The translations under genes were made by a program, and so were the position numbers. Under the pieces are notes generated by a model. It saw only the letters and a list, made by a program, of their open reading frames with translations, was not told the origin of the DNA and made no database searches. A stretch of DNA of 64,000 bases from a virus, in the IMG/VR virus record IMGVR_UViG_3300011005_000053. One strand, written 5' to 3'. Positions 7,971-54,037 of this stretch are shown one piece after another; positions within the stretch are counted from its first letter, which is position 1; each line of letters starts with the position of its first letter.

Positions 7971-8018
7971 TCAAAATGCAGAAAACCCGCAAACCCTTGA
8001 AAATCAAGGACTTGCGGG
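7971..8018 (-). terminator. rho-independent terminator after the 934-aa gene
   Basis: Minus-strand hairpin CCCGCAAGTCCTTG...CAAGGGTTTGCGGG followed by TTTTCTGCATTTTG. Confidence 0.5.
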
Positions 8019-8049
8019 CATTTCAAAGCTTTGAAACTTTTGGGGTAGG

Positions 8050-10854
8050 TCAAGTAATTTGGCCATTTTTTGTAATTTCCCGGCGGAAATGCAGGTCGAA
8101 GATACGCAGATCGCCATCCGGATCCTCTACCAGGGACAGCACCGGCTCCCGGCTTCGTTTGATCAGATCGAAGAAGGAAGAGTTGGGGTAACCGAACAAA
8201 GTGTTGAAGACGGAGCGGCAGATATCTTTGAGCTCATCATCCTCAAGATGTTTTAGGAAATAGATCATGGTGTTACGTGTCATCACGATCTCGCCGACGT
8301 AATCGATACAATCCTGTCGCCTTGTAGCAGCCAGACGGTGTTGATCCTCCGGCTCAAGAGTATCGGACGCGTATATGTACTTGATTTCGCTCCGCGACTG
8401 CCTCACCAGCTCCACAGCGCGCTCGATCTTCGGACGCCACACGTTACGGTGATTGTAATCTTCGCTTGTAACGAGCTCCGAGAAGGGGAGGAAGGCACCG
8501 TGCCGATCCCCGTGACCTGCCCGCAGCTTATAAGAGTTGATGGCCGTCTGCAGGTAATCCATCGTCGATGCATGCTTCTGATATACCTTGGACGATGCGT
8601 CGTAATATCCCTTGCCGCGATCTTTCGCCGCAAAGAAGTTTGGCTTCACCTTGCGACCGTCGGCGCTGACACGCGCATATTTCTGATTCAAGATGTCAAG
8701 CTCTTTACGATTGTTGACGTTGAATTCCTTCTTGGCGGAGTCGATCTCGATATTACTCATCACGTTCAGCAAACACGCGTCCAGATATAACGGCTGCACA
8801 TCCTCAATCGATGCTCCATTATTCAGGCGATCCCATATCATGGAGTTGATCTCGCTGGCCGTGTTCACGATGCGGCCGATCAAATTGCGGCTCGTTTTTA
8901 TATCCAGGTCACACTGCTGAGCCTTGGTGTAATATCGGGCGATCTTCTTCGCCACCACGTTGTACGCGGCAACAGGGAAGTGGGCATAGTGCGTTTCTGC
9001 AGCCTCTATCAGAATATTGTTGTCGGTAAGGAGCATAACGTCCGAATCAAAGTCGGCCCCGGACAGTCTGTCCAGGATGCTCTCGCCAATAGAGTTGAGA
9101 TATACGATCTGCGGCGACGGATTCATGTATCGATCGATCATGTCGTTTGCGGCATTGTTCGCTACCAACACGTTGCCCATAGACACGTGAGGGGAGCGGG
9201 AGCCAAGCAGCTTCTGCCCGTACGCAAAGCGTGTTGAGTGAATGTTACCCGCACCGATCTGACTGGTACCGTCAAAGGTTCCGATTGCCGCCCGCAGCAT
9301 CTCGATCGGATTGCCGCACAGCACACTATAGTTGCCGTTCACGAGCACATGTCCAAGCCGCAGGCTCTTTGTCATGGATTTCAATACATCTGTACGGAAG
9401 TCATGGTACAGTTTCGTCTCGGCAAACCTGTCGTTAATGCCGAGCATCTGATATATCACGTCGTTCTTGCTCTGAGCCGGCAGGATCTCGTCGGCATCCG
9501 GATCGATCGGGTATTTAATATGGTAGCGCATCACAGCAGGGTCCGTCCGCAGCATCGTCATATAATCAAAGGTTGGAGCGAGCAGCGCCCGCACTTCGTC
9601 CGGCGTGAGCTGCAGCGTATTGAGAAGCTGGTAATGGATCTGCACCATACGGCCGTCAAAGAAATGTGTGGGCTTATCATATTTCACCACACCGAACATC
9701 GGCTCAATGTGCGCCATCCACTCATCCAGTGTGCCAAACTTGACATACTTGATACTGCTCGGCGTCGTGATCAGCTTGATATCCTCGACGCGCTTGGCCT
9801 TCGTGCGGCCATGGAGCTGACCGATCTCCGTGATGCCGTTATCGGCAAACCACTGCTGCAGATTGCAGTTAAAGCAGCAGCACTTAAAAAACAGGTTCCG
9901 CAGCAGGATCATACCCTTATCGCTGTACGGCCCCATAGCCGACTTGTCAATCAGCCCCTGCCCGTCCCAGATACTGTTGTGGATCTCACAGGTTTTATGC
10001 TCGGCCGACAACCTACCCCCGTGCTCCTCCACAGAGATCACGTCGTCGGCAAACACACTTTCCCAATCGTCGATCACCAGGATATTCTCCGGCGCCAGCT
10101 CAAGCACATCCACGATGCTGGAGGAGGGAAGAGAGATGTAGCTCTCCAGAGCCGCCAGATCGATCTGATCGCCATCGCGCACATCCAGCCCGCACATCTC
10201 CCATTTGTGCATCTCGTCGTACAGCTTCTCGTCGATGAACAGGCATTTGCCCACACGCGCCGAACCGGAGCTCCGCTTCCAGCGCACATAATGGACGTTG
10301 TCGCACCAGAAGCCGTTTTTGTACAGACGCTCACGCGCTTCGGCCGTACCGACCATAACTTTAGGCTGGTGAAGCATTTTATATTGACCGTCTGCATATC
10401 CGAAGTATGGAAGCAGCTCGTCGTCTGCCGCCGAACGCGCAAAGGGTTTATCCACCTCTACACCGACCACGGTACCGTTTGCGTCCCTGGCAATACCGTC
10501 CCGGAATGTCAAATCTCGCGGGCACTGCCCAAGCTTAACATACGTTGTGCCACCGATGCGGTTCCATTCGCGCACCGCATATTTGAACGTCACATTGATC
10601 ACGCTCTTCGTATAGTGTTTGCGCCCGCGCTTAAAGGAGAAGTCGGTGTCCCCGTAAACACCCTCATACACCTCGCCAAGCTTGATCTGATCGAGGCTGA
10701 AATCCAGCGCGGCTACAAAACGTCTTGTATTATAGTCGCGCTTAAGATTCAGCATACTGTGCCCTATGCGTCTGCGGCGCCAGTTGCTGTAGTATTGCGG
10801 AATGATGAGGTCCTTGCAATCGGCAGAGAAGATATATAGGGACTTACCTCTCAA
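8050..10854 (-). CDS. 934-aa hypothetical protein; candidate non-canonical single-subunit RNA polymerase of the two-barrel (YonO-like) type
   Basis: No Walker motifs. LSGADFDSDVM at about aa 598-608 resembles the universal beta-prime NADFDGDQM catalytic loop. GQKLLGSRSPHVSMGNV about 55 aa upstream resembles the beta GDKLAGRHGNKGV loop, and the beta-like-then-beta-prime-like order matches two-barrel polymerases. There is also a CCCFNC cluster. TTG start at 10854 after GGAGG. Confidence 0.5.
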   Translation of the reverse strand: MRGKSLYIFSADCKDLIIPQYYSNWRRRRIGHSMLNLKRDYNTRRFVAALDFSLDQIKLGEVYEGVYGDTDFSFKRGRKHYTKSVINVTFKYAVREWNRIGGTTYVKLGQCPRDLTFRDGIARDANGTVVGVEVDKPFARSAADDELLPYFGYADGQYKMLHQPKVMVGTAEARERLYKNGFWCDNVHYVRWKRSSGSARVGKCLFIDEKLYDEMHKWEMCGLDVRDGDQIDLAALESYISLPSSSIVDVLELAPENILVIDDWESVFADDVISVEEHGGRLSAEHKTCEIHNSIWDGQGLIDKSAMGPYSDKGMILLRNLFFKCCCFNCNLQQWFADNGITEIGQLHGRTKAKRVEDIKLITTPSSIKYVKFGTLDEWMAHIEPMFGVVKYDKPTHFFDGRMVQIHYQLLNTLQLTPDEVRALLAPTFDYMTMLRTDPAVMRYHIKYPIDPDADEILPAQSKNDVIYQMLGINDRFAETKLYHDFRTDVLKSMTKSLRLGHVLVNGNYSVLCGNPIEMLRAAIGTFDGTSQIGAGNIHSTRFAYGQKLLGSRSPHVSMGNVLVANNAANDMIDRYMNPSPQIVYLNSIGESILDRLSGADFDSDVMLLTDNNILIEAAETHYAHFPVAAYNVVAKKIARYYTKAQQCDLDIKTSRNLIGRIVNTASEINSMIWDRLNNGASIEDVQPLYLDACLLNVMSNIEIDSAKKEFNVNNRKELDILNQKYARVSADGRKVKPNFFAAKDRGKGYYDASSKVYQKHASTMDYLQTAINSYKLRAGHGDRHGAFLPFSELVTSEDYNHRNVWRPKIERAVELVRQSRSEIKYIYASDTLEPEDQHRLAATRRQDCIDYVGEIVMTRNTMIYFLKHLEDDELKDICRSVFNTLFGYPNSSFFDLIKRSREPVLSLVEDPDGDLRIFDLHFRREITKNGQIT

Positions 10855-16362: not shown

Positions 16363-16436
16363 AGGCCCGTGGTGTAACGGCAGCACAACAGACTTTGACT
16401 CTGTTGGAATTGGTTCAACCCCAATCGGGCCTGCCA
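16363..16436 (+). tRNA. tRNA-Gln (anticodon TTG), CCA encoded
   Basis: Hand-folded cloverleaf. Acceptor AGGCCCG/CGGGCCT, D stem GUGU/GCAC, anticodon arm ACAGA-CUUUGAC-UCUGU, T arm AUUGG-UUCAACC-CCAAU, discriminator G then CCA. Confidence 0.7.
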
Positions 16437-31175: not shown

Positions 31176-31252
31176 GCTGGCGTGGCGCAATTGGCAGACG
31201 CACCGGACTTAAAATCCGGTTTCTGCGGGTTCGATCCCCGCCGCCAGTACCA
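31176..31252 (+). tRNA. tRNA with anticodon TAA and a short (class I) variable loop; atypical for a Leu-reading tRNA
   Basis: Hand fold. Acceptor GCUGGCG/CGCCAGU, anticodon arm CCGGA-CUUAAAA-UCCGG, T arm GCGGG-UUCGAUC-CCCGC, CCA encoded. Confidence 0.55.
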
Positions 31253-31464: not shown

Positions 31465-31540
31465 GCTGTCGTAGCTCAATTGGAAGAGCGACGCCCCTGT
31501 AAGGCGTAGGTTATGAGTTCAAGTCTCATCGGCAGCTCCA
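31465..31540 (+). tRNA. tRNA-Thr (anticodon TGT), C at position 33
   Basis: Hand fold. Acceptor GCUGUCG/CGGCAGC, D arm GCUC-AAUUGGAA-GAGC, anticodon arm ACGCC-CCUGUAA-GGCGU, T arm AUGAG-UUCAAGU-CUCAU, CCA encoded. Confidence 0.6.
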
Positions 31541-31543
31541 CAC

Positions 31544-31617
31544 ACTGCGGTAGCTCAACGGCAGAGCGGGCGACTTATAATCGTCTGATAAAAGTTCAAC
31601 TCTTTTCCGCAGTACCA
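31544..31617 (+). tRNA. tRNA-Ile (anticodon TAT)
   Basis: Hand fold. Acceptor ACUGCGG/CCGCAGU, anticodon arm GGCGA-CUUAUAA-UCGUC, T arm AAAAG-UUCAACU-CUUUU, CCA encoded. Only 3 nt after the previous tRNA. Confidence 0.6.
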
Positions 31618-44756: not shown

Positions 44757-45305
44757 ATGCGAGATAATTACATTTTTCTGATCGTTGGGCCAAGTGGAAG
44801 CGGCAAGACGACCTTGGCGAAACGCCTTGGCGCTATCGGCTTACATGAATTACAGTCTTACACCACAAGACCGCCGCGTTTTCCCGGTGAGACCGGACAT
44901 ATTTTCGTCAGCGAATTCAAAGTTGAACATCCGGTGGCCTACACCAATTTCAACGGTTATGACTATTGGGCCACAGCAGAACAAGTGGATGCCAGTGACG
45001 TGTACGTAATCGACCCTGCCGGCATCGAGTGGTTCCTTAGTCAGTATCATGGCAGGCGCGTACCGATCATCGTTTATCTGGACGTGCCGGAGGACGTGTG
45101 CCGGGCCCGTATGAAAGAGCGCGGCGACAGCGACGAAGCTATTGATGGACGTATCGAACATGACCGCAAGGCGTTTGACGGCGTCCGCACCAAGGTGATC
45201 GCCAGACTTTACGGCGCAGATGGTTACGCGTTTGAAAACAAAAATGACGATGATATGGACAATATCATCAAGACAATTCAAGCCTGTCTGGAAGCGGGGC
45301 GTTAA
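44757..45305 (+). CDS. guanylate kinase-like nucleotide kinase
   Basis: P-loop GPSGSGKTTL and SYTTRPPR motif. Confidence 0.65.
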   Translation: MRDNYIFLIVGPSGSGKTTLAKRLGAIGLHELQSYTTRPPRFPGETGHIFVSEFKVEHPVAYTNFNGYDYWATAEQVDASDVYVIDPAGIEWFLSQYHGRRVPIIVYLDVPEDVCRARMKERGDSDEAIDGRIEHDRKAFDGVRTKVIARLYGADGYAFENKNDDDMDNIIKTIQACLEAGR

Positions 45306-45902
45306 ATGACAATCCTTTTTGATTTTGACGACGTACTGAACGATCTGAGCAAGTGTTTTATCCAGGAGCTGAATCGTGAGTACGGCAAGCAGGTTCAATG
45401 GGAAAGCGTCTCCGAATTTGAAATCGGAGAATCGTTTCCAGACTTATCCGATTATCAGATCTATACGCCATATCTGGATGGAACGCTTTATCTGGACGCC
45501 CATCCGGAACAAGGAGCGCAAAACCTTCTGCACGATCTGGCGCAAAAGCACACCATATATATTGTGACGGCCGGCCTGCTGGCTCTGCCTGAAACCACGC
45601 TGTATGAGTACATGTGGGACGGCAACCCGGTCAACAGCACCGAGTATATGCTGCGTTTTCTTGGTGAGTATTATCCCGATGTTCACCCGCAGAACATTGT
45701 GATGACCACCAATAAAACCATGATTCGCGGCGATGCCCTGATCGACGACCGGCCGCAGAACCTGATCGGGTTTCGCGGTTTGAAGATCCTGATGGATAAG
45801 CCGTACAACCACACGTTTGATACGGAGCGTCACAACATACACAGAGCTTATACATATGACGACGTGAAAACTATTTTGACGGAGGAACTTGGCATTGAGT
45901 GA
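45306..45902 (+). CDS. HAD-family 5'(3')-deoxyribonucleotidase-like
   Basis: MTILFDFDDVLND DxDx motif. Confidence 0.55.
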   Translation: MTILFDFDDVLNDLSKCFIQELNREYGKQVQWESVSEFEIGESFPDLSDYQIYTPYLDGTLYLDAHPEQGAQNLLHDLAQKHTIYIVTAGLLALPETTLYEYMWDGNPVNSTEYMLRFLGEYYPDVHPQNIVMTTNKTMIRGDALIDDRPQNLIGFRGLKILMDKPYNHTFDTERHNIHRAYTYDDVKTILTEELGIE

Positions 45903-46209
45903 TAAATATCTGGGATTTGTCGATCGGTATTTAAGCGACGAAGAGCTCGCCGCCTTCTACAGCGATCTTACGTTTAATCGCTTCGATCTGTTCCGAAACG
46001 AATATCTGCTCCTCACAGATATTGATGGCAACACGATCGATACATACCGCTGGAACGGCGAAACGCATGTCCGCGTTCCGACCAAGCAGATCAAAACCAG
46101 ATATCTTGGTACGATCCGCCCCCGCAACCCGCAGCAGGTATGCGCGATCGATATGCTTTACAACACGGATATGACCGTCAAAATGCTACAGGGGCCTTTT
46201 GGCTCGGGT
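45895..46209 (+). CDS. phoH: PhoH-like ATPase, exon 1 (ends within Walker A GPFGSGK)
   Basis: IRPRNPQQVCAIDMLYNTDMTVKMLQGPFGSGK matches the PhoH N-terminus and P-loop. The reading frame then falls into an insertion. Start TTG at 45889 or 45895. Confidence 0.6.
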
Positions 46210-47324
46210 AAAATCTTGCCCCGCCGCGCGGCAACGCTCGGTTGACAATCTTGTAAATTGCTGGAACACCCTGAGAGCCGCACAGACCACAGCGTGAGGA
46301 TGAAACGCCTGGGCGCGATGGTGTGAAAACAGTGCGGATTGGGCAATCAGCAGCCAAGCCCCGAATAGGGGAAGGTTCAACGACTATCCATAAGGAGTAG
46401 GGCGCAAGCCCGAAAAACAAGACGACCCGATATATTGCCATTAAACAACGGGAGGTGAAAGAGTGACAAAGAGGACATGGACACAAGAGCAGGTTGACGA
46501 CATTGTTCATATGTATACCGTCCAGCGCTGTACACAAAAAGTGATCGCGGCAAAGTATAGCGCCAAAGTACAAACTATCAGTGGCATCCTAAAAGCTCAT
46601 AACGTTTCTATCAACTATCGCAAGGGCGCAAATCGCCATATGAACGATCAGTATTTCGATGTAGTTGATTCTGCTGAAAAGGCGTACTTCTTGGGATTAT
46701 TATTAACCGACGGAAGCGTGATTTATGATGCTGAGCGCATTAGGCAGCCAGAAATCAGCATTGAGCTTATAGAGAGTGACGTCGAGATCTTGCACAGACT
46801 GCGTGACGCGATCGGGTTGAGCACCAAGCTGTGCTATGCAAAGCGAGCAGGCAGAAAACATGGTACATATACTCTGAAATTTCGATCGGCGCACATGGCG
46901 TCTACTCTTGCTGCTTATCATATCGTGCAAGATAAAACCCATCGCGTTCGCGTACTGCCACAAAATATCCCCGAACAATATATGAAAGATTATGTTCGTG
47001 GATTAATTGACGGTGATGGCAGTATTTATTTTAGCCAAGGGTCATGGCACATCAATTATTGCGGTCACTTTCAATCACTGGTACGCGATGTCGGAAATGT
47101 GTGCTGCAGCATGATCGGGAGAGATGCACCGCTCAAAATCCAGGTGAGCGATAATGTATACCGTATAACGTTTAATGGTGCGTGGGCACAAAAATTGGCG
47201 TCGGCGCTTTATGATAACGCAGATATTGCAATTGCTCGTAAATACCGTTTGGCAATAGCGGCAATGCGAGGATAATAGGGTCGAAGATATAGTCTAACCC
47301 TCGCCGAAAGGCGAGGTAGCAGTG
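46210..47324 (+). mobile_element. group I intron in phoH carrying a LAGLIDADG homing endonuclease
   Basis: The 5' exon ends ...TCGGGT (U). A GCCC(C)G guide-like element follows the junction. GACTATCC at ~46400 and ATAGTC at ~47288 are P7-like strands. The intron ends in G. Exon 2 has no RBS. Junction positions are approximate. Confidence 0.55.
46463..47275 (+). CDS. LAGLIDADG homing endonuclease
   Basis: Two motifs, YFLGLLLTDGS and VRGLIDGDGSIY. AT-richer codon usage. Confidence 0.75.
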   Translation: MTKRTWTQEQVDDIVHMYTVQRCTQKVIAAKYSAKVQTISGILKAHNVSINYRKGANRHMNDQYFDVVDSAEKAYFLGLLLTDGSVIYDAERIRQPEISIELIESDVEILHRLRDAIGLSTKLCYAKRAGRKHGTYTLKFRSAHMASTLAAYHIVQDKTHRVRVLPQNIPEQYMKDYVRGLIDGDGSIYFSQGSWHINYCGHFQSLVRDVGNVCCSMIGRDAPLKIQVSDNVYRITFNGAWAQKLASALYDNADIAIARKYRLAIAAMRG

Positions 47325-47840
47325 AAAGATTTGTTAATGTCTACAGTAGCTCTGGACATGCTTGACAAAAACAAGTTTGACAAGACCGTCTATGTGCGCA
47401 ACAACATCGAGGTCAAGGACTCCAAGCCGATCGGTTTTCTGCCCGGCACAGACAAAGATAAACTCCTCCCTTACGCGATGCCTTTAGCCGACCATATGGG
47501 CGGCGTCAGCGGCATTGAATTTATGATGAGCCAGGGGCAGTTGGAGATCGTTCATCTTGGATTTATCCGGGGCCGCGATATCAAGGACGCCATCATCTAC
47601 GTTCCCGAAGCGGAGAATATGACAAAAGAACATATTCAGCTTCTGCTCGGACGAGTAGGTGAGGGGTCTCAGCTCTGGATCAACGGCGACTACCGTCAGG
47701 TGGACGCAGAAGTTTTTGTAAAGAACAGTGGTCTTGCGGCCGCCGCAGACCGCTTAAAGGGCCATCCTCGCTTTGGCCTCGTGACGCTGATCAAAACGGA
47801 ACGAAGCGAAACAGCGGCTATGGCCGATCTTTTGGATTGA
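47325..47840 (+). CDS. phoH: PhoH-like ATPase, exon 2
   Basis: IGFLPGTDKDKLLPY...IYVPEAENMTKEHIQLLLGRVGEGSQLWINGDYRQVD matches the PhoH core. Open from 47298 with no start signal. Confidence 0.6.
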   Translation, partial: KDLLMSTVALDMLDKNKFDKTVYVRNNIEVKDSKPIGFLPGTDKDKLLPYAMPLADHMGGVSGIEFMMSQGQLEIVHLGFIRGRDIKDAIIYVPEAENMTKEHIQLLLGRVGEGSQLWINGDYRQVDAEVFVKNSGLAAAADRLKGHPRFGLVTLIKTERSETAAMADLLD

Positions 47841-47856
47841 GAAAAGGAGATTGTAT

Positions 47857-48798
47857 ATGGTTTTACTGATTTTGGCGTTCATTCTTTTGATCGGCGGCCT
47901 TGTTGCAGGTGCTGTCGCGTATAGTCCGGAAGCAGCTTGGGCCTGTCGTATAGGCGGAGTTGTTCTTGCCGTTGTGCTCGTCATCGTAAGTTGTGTGGCG
48001 GTGGTGCCAACAGGGTATACCGGTATTCTCACCACTTTCGGCCGCGTGGAGGATCGCACGGTTCAGTCCGGCATCAACTTTGTCGCGCCCTGGCAGAAGG
48101 TCGTGAAGATGGACAACCGAACCCAGAAAGTCGTCATCGAGACCTCGGCTTTCTCCAGTGATATTCAGCAGGTGGATCTTGACCTGTCAGTGAACTATTG
48201 TATCGACCAGTCCACGGCCCAGGAGCTCTACCGCACCATCGGCACCAATTACTACGAAAATGTCATGTATCCCCGCATCCAGGAAAACACCAAGGCGGTC
48301 TTCTCCCAGTATTCCGCGGAGAATCTGATCTCTAAACGGGACAGCCTGTCCGACTTAATCCTGGAGACGACCGCGAACGATATGGCTTCATACGGCATCA
48401 CCATTGTTTCGATCGCCATCGAGGACATTGACTTCACGGACGCTTTTACCAATGCGGTTGAGGCCAAGCAGGTGGCTGCTCAAAATAAGCTGGCGGAAGA
48501 GACCCGGCAGGCGCAGAAGACTATGGAAGAGCAGGCCGCAGCCGACCGCGCCATTATTATGTCCAAAGCGGAGGCGGAGCAGGCCATTATTGCTGCGAAC
48601 GCGGATCTGGAGGTTGTGAAAATCCAGGCCGATGCGGCTCTGTACGCCGGCGAGCGGGAAGCCAACATGAACGAACGCATTGCGGCGGCTCTCACGGATA
48701 ATCTGATCGACTACTACTGGATCAAAGAATGGGACGGCAAGCTGCCGGATACCGTGCTCAGCAACGACGGAAACTATATGCTGAGTCTTGGCGACTGA
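47857..48798 (+). CDS. SPFH/band-7 domain membrane protein
   Basis: N-terminal TM then GYTGILTTFGRVEDRTVQSGINFVAPW, and a long coiled-coil C-terminus. AAAAGGAGA plus 6 nt then ATG. Confidence 0.65.
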   Translation: MVLLILAFILLIGGLVAGAVAYSPEAAWACRIGGVVLAVVLVIVSCVAVVPTGYTGILTTFGRVEDRTVQSGINFVAPWQKVVKMDNRTQKVVIETSAFSSDIQQVDLDLSVNYCIDQSTAQELYRTIGTNYYENVMYPRIQENTKAVFSQYSAENLISKRDSLSDLILETTANDMASYGITIVSIAIEDIDFTDAFTNAVEAKQVAAQNKLAEETRQAQKTMEEQAAADRAIIMSKAEAEQAIIAANADLEVVKIQADAALYAGEREANMNERIAAALTDNLIDYYWIKEWDGKLPDTVLSNDGNYMLSLGD

Positions 48799-48817
48799 TT
48801 AATATGGTGGTGATGAT

Positions 48818-49018
48818 ATGGAACTTGTGTTATACAGTACCGGCTGCCCGCAGTGCTCGGTACTAAAAAAGAAATTGGACACTAAAGGGTTGTCGTATCG
48901 TGTGAACGAGAATGTTGAAGCGATGCTGGCGCTTGGGATCGACAGTGTGCCTGTACTCAGCGTAGACGGTGAGCTGCTTGGTTTTGCGGCCGCGAACAAA
49001 TGGATTGGAGAACAGTAA
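48818..49018 (+). CDS. NrdH/glutaredoxin-like small redoxin
   Basis: YSTGCPQCSVLKKKL CxxC thioredoxin-fold motif. 66 aa, immediately upstream of nrdD. Confidence 0.65.
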   Translation: MELVLYSTGCPQCSVLKKKLDTKGLSYRVNENVEAMLALGIDSVPVLSVDGELLGFAAANKWIGEQ

Positions 49019-49021
49019 AAG

Positions 49022-49543
49022 ATGCAGATTGAGCTGAAACTTTCAAAGGACTTTGAGCGTTGCTTAAACGATCTCCGCAACAAGTACGGTGAAGATTTTG
49101 AAATTTTGAACGGGGTACATCCGAGTCAATTGGATTTTTCGGAATTCATCGACAACTTCGTGGACAAAAAGACGCTGGCTGACGCCAGCATCGACCCCAA
49201 CGCCAATGCCAACCATAAGGACATCCGCAGCTTTATGACGGAGAAGGCCAAGAGCGAAGACAAGCTGTTTGGACTGAACAAGATTTTTACGGAGATCAAG
49301 AAGCGCTGGGGGCTGCGGACAGCCAAGCAGTGGTTAGAGCAGGAATTCAGCAAGGGTTTTTATCTGAACGACAGCACGACCGCCAGTTATTTCCCTTATT
49401 GCTGGGCGAACGACTTTACGCGCCTCGCCAAAGAGGGCCTGTTCTTCCTTGGCAATTATAACAACGAGGGGCCGAAACATTTGACCACGTATTTTGATGA
49501 TGTGATCGAGTTTGTCAGCTTCCTCTCAAATCGCCAGTCGGGT
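49022..49543 (+). CDS. nrdD: anaerobic ribonucleoside-triphosphate reductase NrdD, exon 1
   Basis: FPYCWANDF...GPKHLTTYFDDVIEFVSFLSNRQSG matches the NrdD N-terminal region. The frame then enters the intron. Confidence 0.7.
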
Positions 49544-50662
49544 AGAAAACGCTGTGCCCGTTTGTCGCTTTTCCACATCATCAGTGGGGTCAATTTTCTT
49601 ATTGGCTAACGGTGAAAGCTAAACAGTATATGCAAGCTAATACCGTGGGAATCGCCTCCCAATGTCCTAAGAAAGATATATACGTAATCAAAAACCGAAT
49701 CAATGATAAGGTTTATGTCGGGCAATCCATTAATGCCGCCGATCGCTTTATAAAACATTGCAAGCCAAGTGCTGCAAAAGACAATTCGTTGATCGATAAG
49801 GCGATACAAAAATATGGCGCAGAAAATTTCTGGTACGAGGTTCTTGAAAGCCAGGTGGAAAATTACAACGATCGTGAGCGATTTTGGATCGAACAGCTTC
49901 ATTCGTTAATTCCTGGTGGATACAATATGCTCCCAGGAGGCGAAGAACCGCCTGTACATCGTTCTATTGATCATCCGCTATCGTCGTTTGACAGTCTTGA
50001 TGAAGTGAAAAAAATCAAAACCGAGCTTCGTACTACAAAACTTAGTTTAGCGGATATTGCAAAACTGCATAACACGTCAAAGAGAACTGTCATGCGTATC
50101 AATCAGGGGCTTCATTATGAGGAGCTTGGTGAAACATATCCAATTCGTGTAACACCTAATTTGTGCGGAAAGCTGTCAGACGACCAAGTGGCTGACATTG
50201 TCGAGTTGCTGCGATATACATATCGACAATACGAAGACCTCGGTAAGCAATACGGCGTGTCTGTTTCTACCATCAAGCAAATCAATTCTGGAGAATGTCA
50301 CCCGCTTCCAGGTGTGCAATATCCAATACGCGCTTATAAAAACAGCGGCAAACCGACCTGCACATATGCACAGGTGACCGAGATTTCCGACTTATTAAAA
50401 AACACAACCATGTCTTGTAGACAAATTGCTAAATGTTATGGAATTGATTTACAAACCGTATATATCATTAATAATGGATCTGCAAAAAGATACCGACGTG
50501 CAGAGCTGACGTATCCTTTGCGCAAACACAATCAGGGGAGGCGACCCTGTATCGACTATCCCCGGTAAGGGGAGTACACCGGCTATTGATACGCCGGTGG
50601 AAAGAGCGACACCGCTGTTTGAGACAGCGGCAAAATATAGTCAGTCCCCGTGGAAACACGGG
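49544..50662 (+). mobile_element. group I intron in nrdD carrying a GIY-YIG homing endonuclease
   Basis: The 5' exon ends CAGTCGGGT (U). GCCCG follows. GACTATCC at ~50552 and ATAGTC at ~50638 are P7-like strands. The intron ends ...CACGGG. The junction is codon-aligned and gives SNRQSG-TPTAVGMPNV. Exon 2 has no RBS. Confidence 0.6.
49612..50568 (+). CDS. GIY-YIG homing endonuclease with C-terminal DNA-binding region
   Basis: KDIYVIKNRINDKVYVGQSINAADRFIKH is the GIY-YIG motif. AT-rich codon usage. Confidence 0.75.
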   Translation: MKAKQYMQANTVGIASQCPKKDIYVIKNRINDKVYVGQSINAADRFIKHCKPSAAKDNSLIDKAIQKYGAENFWYEVLESQVENYNDRERFWIEQLHSLIPGGYNMLPGGEEPPVHRSIDHPLSSFDSLDEVKKIKTELRTTKLSLADIAKLHNTSKRTVMRINQGLHYEELGETYPIRVTPNLCGKLSDDQVADIVELLRYTYRQYEDLGKQYGVSVSTIKQINSGECHPLPGVQYPIRAYKNSGKPTCTYAQVTEISDLLKNTTMSCRQIAKCYGIDLQTVYIINNGSAKRYRRAELTYPLRKHNQGRRPCIDYPR

Positions 50663-52075
50663 ACGCCTACGGCAGTAGGCATGCCCAATGTTCTGATCTG
50701 GGCATGGTACTTCTGGAAGAAGGACTGCGAAGACGGCTATTACATGAAAAATCCGGATTATTATCTCCGCCAGCAGTTTCAGAAATTTATTTACCGGTTG
50801 AATCAACCGTTCCTTCGGATAGATCAGAGCGCCTTTACCAACGTTTCCATCTTTGACCGCCCGTATCTGGAATCCCTGTTTGGCGGCGTTGAGTTCCCGG
50901 ACGGGACCTTTGCCATTGACCACATCGAAGACTTGATCGAATGTCAGAAGGTGTTCATGGACGTCGTCAGCGAGATCAGAAGCACGAACATGTTCACTTA
51001 TCCAGTATTAACTTATTCGTTGTTATATCAGGATAACAAGTTCGTAGACGAGCCCTTCGCCCGCTGGTGCTCCGCCCATAACATGCAGTGGTCCGACAGC
51101 AACTTCTTTGTCAGCGATAACGTTGGTGTCCTGAGTAACTGTTGCCGGCTTCTCAGCGACACCAAAAAGCTCGATGCGTTCATCAATTCTATTGGCGGCA
51201 CGGCGCTGTCTGTAGGCTCCTGCCGCGTCAGCACCATTAACCTGGTGAGAATCGCTTATGAGAGCGACATGAACAAGAAAAAGTATCTCAAGATCCTGCG
51301 AGACCGCGTGCTGCTCGACTGTAAGGCGCTGACTTCCATGCGCCACATTCTCCAACGTAATATTGAGAAGGGCCTGCTTCCGAATTATCAGGACGGGGCC
51401 GTCGAGCTTGATAAGCAGTTCTGCACCATTGGCGGTATCGGCATGTATGAGGTCATGGATCTGTTCGGCCTGATCGATACGGATGAATTCGGCAACAAGA
51501 GTTATTCCGATGAAGCTGTCGCGTTTGCAACCGAAATCCTGGACACGATCAATGAGGTCAAGGATTCTTTTGAGTGTGATTTTTCGTTCAACGTCGAAAT
51601 GATCCCCGCCGAAAACTGCGCCGGTGTGATTTGTCAGGCCGACAACCTGATCTACGAGCAGAACAAATACTTCATCTATTCCAACCAGTGGATCCCCTTG
51701 ATGGAGAAATGCACGATCCAGGAGAAGTGCCGTCTCGGTTCTCTGTTCGATCAGAAGTGCGGCGGTGGATGTATCGCCCATATCAATATCGAAAATCGTT
51801 TCCCGAACGAGGAGACCGCGTGGGATATGCTGAACTATGTTGCATCTCATGGCGTGATCTATTTCGCTTTCACCACCAAGATTTCGGCGTGCAAACACAA
51901 GCACGCCTTTATCGGAACGCAGACCTGTCCTCGCTGCGGCGAACCGGTAGCGGATACATATGCTCGCGTGGTCGGCTTCTATACCCCCGTCAGCAGTTAT
52001 CAGAAAATCCGCAAACATGAGTTTGATCGTCGCCGTTGGATGAACGTACTTTCAAAGGACGGCGTGATGCAATGA
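50663..52075 (+). CDS. nrdD: NrdD, exon 2 (glycyl-radical domain)
   Basis: C-terminal CPRCGEPVADTYARVVGFYTPV carries the glycyl radical motif. A zinc-ribbon CxxC lies upstream. Confidence 0.7.
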   Translation, partial: TPTAVGMPNVLIWAWYFWKKDCEDGYYMKNPDYYLRQQFQKFIYRLNQPFLRIDQSAFTNVSIFDRPYLESLFGGVEFPDGTFAIDHIEDLIECQKVFMDVVSEIRSTNMFTYPVLTYSLLYQDNKFVDEPFARWCSAHNMQWSDSNFFVSDNVGVLSNCCRLLSDTKKLDAFINSIGGTALSVGSCRVSTINLVRIAYESDMNKKKYLKILRDRVLLDCKALTSMRHILQRNIEKGLLPNYQDGAVELDKQFCTIGGIGMYEVMDLFGLIDTDEFGNKSYSDEAVAFATEILDTINEVKDSFECDFSFNVEMIPAENCAGVICQADNLIYEQNKYFIYSNQWIPLMEKCTIQEKCRLGSLFDQKCGGGCIAHINIENRFPNEETAWDMLNYVASHGVIYFAFTTKISACKHKHAFIGTQTCPRCGEPVADTYARVVGFYTPVSSYQKIRKHEFDRRRWMNVLSKDGVMQ

Positions 52076-52557
52076 AGATACGCGGCATTCTCGCGGAGGA
52101 TTTTCAAAACTTCCGCCTGCCCTCCATGTATATCGCAACATCGTTGTGTGACTGGAAATGCTGCTGTGAACAGAATCTCGACCTTGGGGTGTGCCAAAAC
52201 GCACCCCTTGCGTCGAGCCCCATTATGGACGTGTCGTATGACGCCATCTTTGAGCTGTATCACCACAATGATATAAGCCGCGCCGTCGTGATCGGTGGTC
52301 TCGAACCCTTCCTGCAGTTCAACGACATTTTTGAGTTGATTCGTGTGTTTCGGGAGAGGGGAGAGATGTGTCCGTTTGTGATCTATACAGGTTACTACCC
52401 GGAAGAGATCGCCAATGAGCTGCGTTCCATACGACAGAGCTTTTCCAATATCATCGTAAAATTCGGTCGGTATATACCGGACCGTCCGGCGCGTTACGAC
52501 GACGTGCTCGGAATCACGTTGGCGTCTGATAACCAGTACGCCGAGGAGCTGTCATGA
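52072..52557 (+). CDS. nrdG: anaerobic RNR activating enzyme NrdG (radical SAM)
   Basis: SLCDWKCCCEQN Cys cluster. ATGA overlap with nrdD. Confidence 0.65.
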   Translation: MKIRGILAEDFQNFRLPSMYIATSLCDWKCCCEQNLDLGVCQNAPLASSPIMDVSYDAIFELYHHNDISRAVVIGGLEPFLQFNDIFELIRVFRERGEMCPFVIYTGYYPEEIANELRSIRQSFSNIIVKFGRYIPDRPARYDDVLGITLASDNQYAEELS

Positions 52558-52739
52558 AAATCATATTAAATCCAGACGCCGAACATGTCGCCAACATCAA
52601 AGCGGCGCTAAAAAAGAACGGCGGTTATTGCCCATGCCGTCTTGTCCGAACGCAGGAGACAAAATGCATGTGCAAAGAATTCAAAGAAATGGAAGAAGGG
52701 ATGTGTCACTGTGGACTCTACATTAAAACCTCAGACTGA
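52554..52739 (+). CDS. small Cys-rich protein resembling the ferredoxin:thioredoxin reductase catalytic subunit (FtrB-like)
   Basis: CPCRLV...CMC...CHCGLY matches the CPC...CHC pattern of FtrB. ATGA overlap with nrdG. Confidence 0.45.
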   Translation: MKIILNPDAEHVANIKAALKKNGGYCPCRLVRTQETKCMCKEFKEMEEGMCHCGLYIKTSD

Positions 52740-52947
52740 GCAGGAACTGTTGGATCAGGTTTCCCCGCAGGACGATGCAGATGATGATCGTTATGAGCTT
52801 ACGCCGAAAGGTTTGGCTTTACTTGCCATGATGCAGGTCGGTCTCGTGGATGATATTGACGATCCGCGCATCGACGGGTTTTGGACGATTTTCTCTGTTC
52901 TGATGGATCGTCACGGCTACGTCGAAGAGCTGGAAGATGGTGATTGA
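52711..52947 (+). CDS. small acidic hypothetical protein
   Basis: GGAAGAAGGGA plus 9 nt then GTG at 52711. Overlaps the previous gene by 29 nt. Confidence 0.4.
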   Translation: MDSTLKPQTEQELLDQVSPQDDADDDRYELTPKGLALLAMMQVGLVDDIDDPRIDGFWTIFSVLMDRHGYVEELEDGD

Positions 52948-54037
52948 TATGCACCGCCATCGTTTGCTTCCGCTTGTCATTCTGCTGATACTCGTTATTC
53001 TGACGCAGACAGCTTATATAGCGCTCGGGCCCGAGCATGACCTGTACAGCGATGTTTCCCGCAACGCCGATTACTACGAAGCCGTCGCATGGGCCACATC
53101 CAACGGCATTACAAATGGCACAGGAAATAGCCGGTTCTCCCCGGACGATCCCGTGACCACACGTCAGTGGGCCGTCATGCTGTGCCGCGCCTTCCGCGTC
53201 GAGAGCGCAATAAATGACAATGGGGCTTTTGGAGACGCCAGCTTGTCGCACGCATTCGATCGCGGTTGGATCGACGATGTCGCCGTAACAAGTCCTGAAT
53301 CTTCATGGTGCAGATGGAACCTGTACAAAAGCGCGTTTCGCGCCTACGGCATTTCTGTATATCCAAACGAAGTCTATGGCGGGGAGCATATGACAACGAC
53401 AGAAAATGTAATGCGCACCGCTTATCAGGTCGGCCTGTGTGAAGCGTATGCGGCAAGCGGCGTGATTTCCACGCGAGCAGAAGCTGTATCGGTCATTTAT
53501 CGTCTCGCCACAAACGATTGTGCGTCTATGATCAAGGCGCCGGAATTGCTGCAAATAGAAGCGTCAAAAAATGTTGATCTCGCGCCATATTACGACGAGC
53601 TCGTACACTTACCGACGGCGATCGTGCAGGCGTTTATAGATGAAGGTTGGCAGATCAAACTTGATTTTGATTACCTCTGCCGGCTCGGCGATCAATACAA
53701 CGCATCCGTTATCGGAGCGACCTCGGCCACATCGAAAGTGATCTTTCTTGAATGTCCGCATGCTATGGCTCATGAGTTTGGACACTTCCTCGACCACTAT
53801 CTCGGAGACGTATCAAACGATCCGCTTTGGGAAGAGGAGATCCGTTTGGGGCAGGCATACTTAAGAGATTATGCCGAGACCAATGTCAAGGAATACTTTG
53901 CCGAGGCGTTTGCCTATTACGTCGGCCGCCCGAATTACCGCATTGCACTGGAAGATATGCAGCAATTCACTCCGCAAACCTATGAATTCTTCCGCGATCT
54001 TGAAGCGCACAACTGGGAATCAGAATTAGGGTATTGA
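52937..54037 (+). CDS. secreted zinc metalloprotease (HExxH) with N-terminal signal/TM and an SLH-like segment; moron-like
   Basis: ECPHAMAHEFGHFLDH zincin motif (anthrax-lethal-factor-like family). Signal peptide LLPLVILLILVIL. FSPDDPVTTRQWAVML is SLH-like. Alternative start at 52949. Confidence 0.55.
   Translation: MVIDMHRHRLLPLVILLILVILTQTAYIALGPEHDLYSDVSRNADYYEAVAWATSNGITNGTGNSRFSPDDPVTTRQWAVMLCRAFRVESAINDNGAFGDASLSHAFDRGWIDDVAVTSPESSWCRWNLYKSAFRAYGISVYPNEVYGGEHMTTTENVMRTAYQVGLCEAYAASGVISTRAEAVSVIYRLATNDCASMIKAPELLQIEASKNVDLAPYYDELVHLPTAIVQAFIDEGWQIKLDFDYLCRLGDQYNASVIGATSATSKVIFLECPHAMAHEFGHFLDHYLGDVSNDPLWEEEIRLGQAYLRDYAETNVKEYFAEAFAYYVGRPNYRIALEDMQQFTPQTYEFFRDLEAHNWESELGY

Follow-up and report, generated by a model that had tools for sequence, protein, structure and literature searches.

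Putative mobile group I introns of separate lineages interrupt phoH and nrdD in an uncultivated tailed phage

The viral DNA recorded as IMGVR_UViG_3300011005_000053, a stretch of 64,000 nucleotides (nt) referred to here as the window, carries on its + strand, in this order, genes for an NT5C nucleotidase, a two-piece PhoH-like ATPase, an SPFH protein, a glutaredoxin, an NrdD that is likewise divided in two, and an NrdG-like activase. An earlier note on this DNA described phoH as cut within its P-loop and nrdD as cut after SNRQSG, each by a 1.1-kb insertion that contains an open reading frame (ORF) for a LAGLIDADG and a GIY-YIG endonuclease, respectively. Both descriptions are borne out (Table 1), with the ORF assignments backed by Pfam in the two cases and also by two sequence motifs in the former. 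The hexamer TCGGGT with which both upstream exons end, and the G with which both insertions end, are present where the note had placed them. The analyses make it very probable that phoH and nrdD each carry a mobile, self-splicing, T4-like group I intron of subgroup IA, and that the two introns belong to separate lineages.

The exon-intron junctions were placed by comparison with intron-less homologues, a check advocated in the earlier note, using 44 phoH and 78 nrdD sequences. Related loci fetched from IMG/VR, metagenome assemblies and phage records are labeled L001-L230. The spliced phoH product can be aligned over its whole length with PhoH homologues that lack the intron. Excision of the insertion gives GSG|KD, and the 44 homologues, comprising those of Lactococcus phage 949, MT835676 and 42 metagenomic relatives, are continuous across this junction residue for residue and read G.FG.GKD[YFL]LM. 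The concern that splicing would generate GSGK-D rather than GKT is resolved by this comparison: judged from the homologues, GKD is native to the PhoH subfamily of the window. The Walker A sequence GxxGxGKD, not GK[ST], is found in all 44 motif-bearing intron-less homologues (window positions 46195-46212 plus 47325-47330), and the intron-bearing phoH allele of L230 alone reads GKT. The exact position of the junction is ambiguous from a repeated AAA, and was set after U46209 and G47324 because the rule that U precedes the intron and G terminates it points there, in agreement with the P10 pairing. In P10, exon AAGAU (47326-30) pairs with intron AUCUU (46213-17), which immediately precedes the guide GCCCCG, whereas in P1 exon CGGGU (46205-09) pairs with the guide itself (46218-23) and leaves a U.G wobble at the splice site. 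The terminal G (omega-G) is 47324. A 3′ junction at 47316, the end of the Rfam match described below, was rejected as it puts TAG in frame. The predicted splice therefore joins GGCTCGGGT to AAAGATTTG, giving the product ...GPFGSGKDLLM....

The nrdD junction was located in the same manner. The Pfam NRDD profile is contiguous across the gap, as exon 1 ends at profile position 104 and exon 2 begins at position 105 with Ala (GCA, 50672). NrdD of Clostridium phage c-st is unbroken at NLQSGAVGIPD, and the NrdD of ProddE also was aligned. Furthermore, SNRQSG|AVG[MLI]PN is continuous in the 78 intron-less nrdD relatives, which are 76-90% identical. Exon CGGGU (49539-43) pairs with the guide GCCCG (49556-60) in P1, exon GCAGU pairs with intron GCUGU (49551-55) in P10, and the omega-G is 50671. 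The predicted splice joins CAGTCGGGT to GCAGTAGGC with ...SNRQSGAVGMPN... as product. The suggestion in the earlier note that the downstream exons lack ribosome-binding sites was correct in part. It held for nrdD exon 2, which has neither a Shine-Dalgarno sequence nor a start codon at the junction; in phoH, GAGG (47313-16) lies inside the P9 3′ strand just upstream of phoH exon 2, 5 nt before an in-frame GTG (47322). A PhoH protein truncated by N-terminal loss could in principle be made from unspliced RNA via this GAGG/GTG pair (47313-47324).

The phoH insertion was matched at positions 46200-47316 by the full Rfam group I model (Intron_gpI, RF00028, model positions 1-253) with 69.7 bits and an E-value of 1.3e-15, the gathering score of this model being 50 bits. 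The catalytic core that is recognized by the covariance model comprises the P3-P8 pseudoknot, P4-P6 and P7. The P7-like strands on which the earlier note remarked occur in both insertions: GACTATCC at 46382-89 with ATAGTC at 47289-94 in phoH, and the same elements at 50554-61 and 50637-42 in nrdD. Four further introns of the phoH family were available (L144, L145, L147 and L230), and compensatory changes, judged by eye among the five sequences, occur in P2, P3, P6, P7.1, P7.2, P8 and P9. For example, P6 appears as GCCCC/GGGG, GCCGC/GCGG or GCUCC/GGAG, and P8 as ACCC/GGGU, ACUCU/AGAGU or ACCU/AGGU. The long P5 extension of the window intron is absent in L144. The proposed pairing of the guide GCCC(C)G with the exon end proved real, as P1 covaries in both families: exon GUGGU faces guide GCCAC in L230 of the phoH family, and AGCGGU faces GCCGC in L163 of the nrdD family.

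The structure of the nrdD insertion was assessed with an alignment (A3) of 17 distinct ORF-deleted introns from the same nrdD site, in which pairs were counted on a hand-built structure of 82 pairs and compared with controls in which the partners were slid, as well as with 500 shuffles. Paired cells amounted to 92.0% against 40-48% in the slid controls, 49 of the 82 pairs were changed on both sides against 13-20, and the covariation score was 0.417 against 0.08-0.11; none of the 500 shuffles reached the observed values. Compensatory pairs are present in each of P3, P4, P5, P6, P7.1, P7.2, P8 and P9. P7.1 is fully paired (100%) with three of its four pairs compensatory, P7.2 is 98% paired with all seven pairs compensatory, and P7 (GACUAU/AUAGUC) is invariant across the 17 members, as is the U.G pair at the end of P1. 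P10 is 94% paired and shows a compensatory change in L165, where exon GCUGU meets intron GCAGC. The minimum free energy fold of the ORF-deleted intron RNA recovered P1, P3 and the local hairpins. An alternative pairing of the P3 strand, GUCGCUUUUCC with GGGGAGGCGAC, was rejected; P3 and P6 both covary instead. Read-through from exon 1 terminates before P4, at intron nt 33-63, in all 17 members.

An independent covariance model of the P7-to-P7′ domain (R1) was built from the T4 td, sunY and nrdB introns and three foreign phoH introns only. R1 finds exactly two sites in the entire window (128 kb of searched strand), and these are the two introns: the phoH intron is matched at 46377-46442 with 22.5 bits, and the nrdD intron at 50549-50647 with all helices intact. 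The covariation, the invariant and correctly placed P7 and the R1 match were together taken to indicate that a group I core is present in the nrdD insertion. Thus, the proposal that both insertions are group I introns with endonuclease genes is upheld, for phoH by the Rfam match and for nrdD by covariation and R1. P7.1 and P7.2, whose presence between P7 and P3′ is the hallmark of subgroup IA, occupy this position in both introns, as they do in T4 td, sunY and nrdB, and both introns correspond to the T4 introns in each element.

The nrdD intron has two uncommon elements. The additional hairpins at 49573-87 and 49588-49607 covary and are conserved in 17 of 17 family members. A further hairpin spans the 3′ splice site, in which the final six bases of the intron pair with positions +4 to +9 of exon 2; this hairpin is conserved in all 17 members with 95% pairing, overlaps P10 by two bases, and shows compensatory changes at synonymous positions of nrdD codons. 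The intron and its host gene may therefore be co-evolving at the RNA level. The hairpin could concern the choice or the timing of the 3′ splice site.

Table 1. Positions of exons, insertions, intron helices, endonuclease ORFs and tRNA genes in the window
Feature	Position	Strand	Details
phoH exon 1	45889-46209	+	TTG start, GGAGG upstream; ends ...GGC TCG GGT (...GPFGSG), last base U46209; from ORF list
phoH insertion	46210-47324	+	1115 nt; begins AAAAUCUU-GCCCCG, ends ...CAGUG
phoH exon 2	47325-47840	+	begins AAA GAT (K D); Pfam PhoH 107.6 bits from exon residue 1
phoH intron, 5′ part			P10 strand 46213-17; guide GCCCCG 46218-23; P2 ~46224-41; P3 UCUUGU 46249-54 / ACAAGA 46417-22
phoH intron, P4-P6			P4 46258-64 / 46347-53; long P5 extension ~46267-46344; P6 46354-75
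phoH intron, 3′ part			P7 GACUAU 46382-87 / AUAGUC 47289-94; P7.1 46388-95; P7.2 46400-11
phoH intron, P8 and P9			P8 GACCC 46424-28 / GGGUC 47278-82; P9 47298-47316
LAGLIDADG ORF	46463-47275	+	270 amino acids; GTG start; strong Shine-Dalgarno GGGAGGTG 46449-56; within P8 loop (L8)
nrdD exon 1	49022-49543	+	ends ...CAG TCG GGT (...SNRQSG), last base U49543; Pfam NRDD positions 14-104
nrdD insertion	49544-50671	+	1128 nt; begins AGAAAACGCUGU-GCCCG, ends ...CCUACG
nrdD exon 2	50672-52075	+	begins GCA GTA GGC (A V G); Pfam NRDD resumes at position 105
nrdD intron, 5′ part			P10 strand 49551-55; guide 49556-60; no P2; P3 49563-72 / 50602-11
nrdD intron, extra hairpins	49573-87 and 49588-49607		between P3 and J3/4
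nrdD intron, J3/4 UAA	49607-09		in-frame stop for exon-1 read-through
nrdD intron, P4-P6			P4 49609-14 / 49641-46; P5 49617-20 / 49635-38; P6 49647-60 / 50536-47, closing the ORF
GIY-YIG ORF	49630-50568	+	312 amino acids from ATG; starts in L5, UAA stop in P7.1 loop
nrdD intron, 3′ part			P7 50554-59 / 50637-42; P7.1 50560-72; P7.2 50577-99; P8 50612-30; P9 50644-64
nrdD 3′ splice-site hairpin	intron 50665-70 / exon 50675-80		GCCUAC-G|GCA-GUAGGC
tRNA genes (four)	16363-16433, 31176-31249, 31465-31537, 31544-31614		Rfam 60-66 bits

The earlier note proposed that the two introns are related and had spread within this genome. On this account the introns are close relatives, one having been derived by spread, in the genome or in its recent ancestors, to a second TCGGGT site, e.g., by reverse splicing guided by GCCC(C)G, and the endonuclease genes were acquired separately later. 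The introns are only 2.2 kb apart, follow an identical exon hexamer in the same codon phase after Ser-Gly, have similar guides (GCCCCG vs. GCCCG), and possess in common P7 GACUAU/AUAGUC, P7.1, GAGUA, P7.2, GAAA and P3′. Nevertheless, this origin is improbable. Relatedness was assessed by z-scores of local alignments against shuffled controls for five IA introns, with the 5′ and 3′ domains treated separately. The pair of window introns scored −0.3 in the 5′ domain and 2.4 in the 3′ domain, among the lowest values in each set, whereas each is closer to a T4 intron: the phoH intron scored 13.1 with sunY and 10.3 with td, and the nrdD intron 6.1 with td and 3.6 with sunY, so that the sunY core is nearer to the phoH intron than to the nrdD intron. 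All of the core motifs that the window introns share, including GACUAUCC, AUAGUC, GAGUA and the J8/7 sequence AUAUAGUC, occur also in T4 td and sunY, and are therefore features of the subgroup. The architectures differ, as P2 is found in the phoH intron only and the J3/4 hairpins, P4-P6, the P5 extension and P9 are unlike, and the endonucleases are of different families and are encoded in different loops (L8 vs. L5-P6). In addition, each intron belongs to a family of its own, which in distant phages is conserved at the identical position of its particular gene.

Nor is the shared hexamer conserved throughout the two families. Exons of the phoH family end in TCGGGT, GCGGGT or AGTGGT, and the guide varies accordingly; of the 17 members of the nrdD family, one has the exon end AGCGGT and 10 leave position −5 unpaired. 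TCGGGT occurs on the + strand of the window at chance frequency (15 copies vs. 14.9 expected), and the 13 other copies are free of introns. Exons ending in GGGU also precede the T4 td intron (UUGGGU) and an intron in L125 (UAGGGU), with a GGGU/GCCC P1. UCG is the only Ser codon that ends in G. Given the preference for a GGGU/GCCC P1 and insertion after a complete Gly codon, the preceding Ser must therefore be specified by UCG. Coincidence combined with constraint is the best explanation for the common TCGGGT, which then reduces to the fact that both sites follow Ser-Gly. Sister status of the two introns is not supported, either by mutual similarity or by a conserved hexamer; the comparisons point instead to independent lineages that have long resided at their respective gene sites across many phages.

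The nrdD intron resembles the T4 td intron, of type IA2, which encodes I-TevI. The GIY-YIG catalytic domain is 36% identical to residues 2-91 of I-TevI over 92 amino acids (E 6e-9), the ORF is looped out from P6 and extends at its 3′ end into P6′ and J6/7, P4 is of the ACGGNG...CCCGU type seen in td and sunY, the order P7, P7.1, GAGUA, P7.2, GAAA, P3′, P8 is retained, and exon 1 ends in GGGU. In contrast to td, the host gene is nrdD, P2 is missing, two covarying hairpins separate P3 from J3/4, and a hairpin extends across the 3′ splice site into exon 2. Moreover, the window ORF stretches from L5 to the P7.1 loop, whereas the I-TevI stop codon is in J6/7 with less extensive overlap, and the C-terminal DNA-binding region of the window protein, unlike that of I-TevI, consists of helix-turn-helix (HTH) repeats. 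With the T4 nrdD intron (sunY, I-TevII) the window nrdD intron shares the host gene, the subgroup, a GIY-YIG endonuclease and the lack of P2. However, the T4 ORF is 3′ of the core instead of in P6, the window endonuclease is without similarity to I-TevII, and the T4 site (...QAYE|YEVNTL) is ~40 aligned residues downstream of NRQSG|AVG. Identity of the two sites was rejected by this alignment, in which the T4 junction was set from an AUGAGU/GCUCAU P1. The phoH intron is akin to the T4 nrdB intron (I-TevIII) in P4-P6 and J6/7, AAUUGCUGGAA...CAGCAGCCAAG...GGUUCAACGACUA, and to sunY and td in the 3′ domain, but is unlike nrdB and sunY in its host gene, its Walker A site, the LAGLIDADG gene in the P8 loop and the long P5 extension. 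The intron enzymes of T-even phages are of the GIY-YIG or HNH type (PMC2988022).

The distribution of the introns among related loci is that expected of mobile elements. The phoH-intron ORF has two LAGLIDADG motifs, FLGLLLTDG (residue 76) and VRGLIDGDG (residue 178), and its score of 23.8 bits with Pfam LAGLIDADG_3 (PF14528) slightly exceeds the cutoff of 22.5. Its 22 homologues are all ≤46% identical, and in four of the five contexts inspected (L144, L145, L147 and L230) phoH is cut at the same GxG|K site; this site is empty in 52 loci. In the fifth context, L228 2309-3722 (also L229), a 33%-identical LAGLIDADG homologue is situated between pieces of a DNA polymerase III alpha gene in phage contigs from Hadza gut, and a weak R1 match at L228 2421-2506 probably marks another intron there. 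The GIY-YIG ORF, the coding sequence of which overlaps P5′, P4′, P6, J6/7 and the P7 5′ strand, matches Pfam PF01541 at residues 23-98 with 31.5 bits (cutoff 22.6), followed by the HTH repeats, and has >200 homologues. Occupied nrdD loci were collected from the neighborhoods of GIY-YIG homologues (L139-L143) and by a scan of viral contigs with a protein alignment; searches of viral contigs with either endonuclease protein as a single query found none, whereas the alignment did retrieve loci. Those with a match over most of the endonuclease (L149-L174) are all in nrdD, mostly at site 174|175. This site is occupied in 22 fetched loci with 17 distinct sequences, whose NrdD proteins are 42-90% identical to that of the window, and is empty in 80 loci (76-90% identity). 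Homologous introns thus are present even where NrdD is 42-60% identical to the window protein, and L149, with 84-90% NrdD identity, carries the intron at this site, whereas L057, with 90% identity, lacks it.

We infer from these features that both introns are catalytic in vivo and that both endonucleases are active. The last bases of the upstream exon, (C)GGGU, would pair with GCCC(C)G to form P1 with the U.G wobble at the splice site, and an external guanosine would attack after U46209 or U49543. P10 would then align exon 2 through AAGAU/AUCUU in phoH and GCAGU/GCUGU in nrdD, and ligation of the exons after the terminal G (47324 or 50671) would restore intact PhoH and NrdD. The endonucleases presumably cut intron-less alleles during co-infection, with the intron being copied in by repair.

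Alternatively, the genes might truly be split, their halves assembling from unspliced products as in nrdA/mobE of Aeromonas phage Aeh1, in which case the RNA structures would be vestigial. Unspliced split ribonucleotide reductase genes do exist in phages (PMC3653736), GAGG and an in-frame GTG precede phoH exon 2, and a view of expression gained from DNA only is compatible with this possibility. It is nonetheless highly improbable. The interruptions are located within the Walker A loop and amid a conserved stretch of NrdD, the second nrdD exon is without initiation signals at the junction, and excision restores the exact sequence of intron-less homologues. Furthermore, the helices, among them the exon-intron pairings P1 and P10, are kept by compensatory changes across the 17 homologues, which requires continued selection for splicing. 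Inteins were rejected, as in-frame stops occur 12 (phoH) and 22 (nrdD) codons into the insertions.

Several observations weigh against the interpretation of the insertions as two self-splicing introns of separate descent. Splicing in vivo is deduced from structure and sequence. The outcome of the search with covariance models, which the earlier note had proposed as a check, was divided: Rfam found the phoH intron but missed that of nrdD, even in permissive mode (E ≤10) on 49400-50800, and at E ≤1 no introns other than that of phoH were found in the window. The ~900-nt ORF inside P6 of the nrdD intron probably breaks the model. The scanned ORF-containing homologues also were missed by Rfam, including L144, L147, L230 and those at the nrdD site; 13 related loci yielded only tRNAs at the gathering threshold. 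The R1 match to the nrdD intron is modest, at 19.7 bits with a rough E-value of 0.016, and the layout of this intron, which has no P2 and two hairpins between P3 and J3/4, is not that of the textbook. Finally, the identical hexamers, codon phase and subgroup also fit an ancient common origin of the two introns, to which nothing that was measured points, although the short and fast-evolving cores limit what sequence comparison might detect.

Group I introns in phage genes of nucleotide metabolism, especially nrdD, are long known, including T4 sunY/I-TevII and the fragmented nrdD of Lactococcus phage 949 (PMC3653736, PMC2988022), and nrdD of the gut 'Jug' jumbo phages is heavily fragmented by introns, endonucleases and inteins, with splicing confirmed by metatranscriptomes (PMC12880540). 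The window gene and its relatives resemble these cases in that nrdD, in cultured and uncultivated phages alike, is a hotspot for group I introns and inteins, as exemplified by second introns (L139, L140), an intein (L142) and an ORF-less intron (L125) among the relatives, but the window derives from a different phage group than the Jug phages, with a source contig of ~95 kb, and only one intron interrupts its nrdD. The full-text literature searched, the coverage of which is incomplete and does not prove novelty, yielded no description of an intron in phoH; the phoH intron site appears to be unreported. It is conceivable, if on balance doubtful, that the family of LAGLIDADG introns targeting the phoH Walker A sequence and the nrdD site-174 family, as a distinct IA structural variant, are both undescribed. 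The lack of P2, the two covarying hairpins, the overlap of the ORF with the core between L5 and the P7.1 loop, and the exon-2 hairpin may be the features of such a variant.

Both introns are of a known kind, and the understanding of group I introns is unchanged by them. In annotation, however, each gene should be joined across its intron instead of being recorded as four fragments and two hypothetical proteins in all, and phoH can be added to the phage genes in which group I introns reside. The nrdD family is widespread, as IMG/VR and metagenome assemblies contain >20 occupied loci, and escapes the Rfam Intron_gpI model when P6 contains the endonuclease ORF; intron censuses based only on the model therefore undercount. 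The 17-homologue alignment could seed a better covariance model, and offers a natural example of co-variation in P1, in P10 and between exon and intron.

Other insertions were noted in related nrdD genes. GIY-YIG homologues 33-47% identical to the window endonuclease are located in L166, L167, L169 and L170 (~1340-2510) and in L173 and L174 (~1370-2660) at two other sites, near residues 223|226 and 430 of the window NrdD, with R1 matches, which suggests that the lineage of this endonuclease and its intron has shifted from one nrdD site to another. Downstream of site 174, L139 (3543-5173) and L140 (2382-3861) have a second group I intron, which contains an HTH-rich ORF of 368-373 amino acids and is matched by R1 with 40-42 bits (L139 4896-4985 and L140 3742-3834); second R1 matches also were seen in L165 and L155. 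In L142 (976-2475; also L143, 195-1694) an intein with Intein_splicing and LAGLIDADG domains lies upstream of the GIY-YIG intron in a 499-amino acid nrdD exon 1, and NrdD of Clostridium phage c-st (L001 1501-4437) has an intein at SCC|RL. The ORF-less intron of ~272 nt in L125 (7829-8100) is within the glycyl-radical motif RVVG|FYTP. Its exon 1 ends in GUAGGGU, the guide is GCCC, and P7 pairs GACUAC with GUAUAGUC; it gave no Rfam match at E ≤1, and an R1 match of 19 bits at 8017-8065.

The window originates from an uncultivated tailed phage, with genes for DNA polymerase III alpha, a primase-helicase, the TerL terminase, an integrase, an SLH-domain protein and four tRNAs. A megablast search of positions 45000-53000 against deposited phage genomes gave no match and hence no close relative. 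The SLH-domain protein suggests a Firmicutes host. This 366-amino acid protein (52937-54037) combines the SLH domain with a metalloprotease domain resembling anthrax lethal factor (ATLF), which hints at a Gram-positive host.

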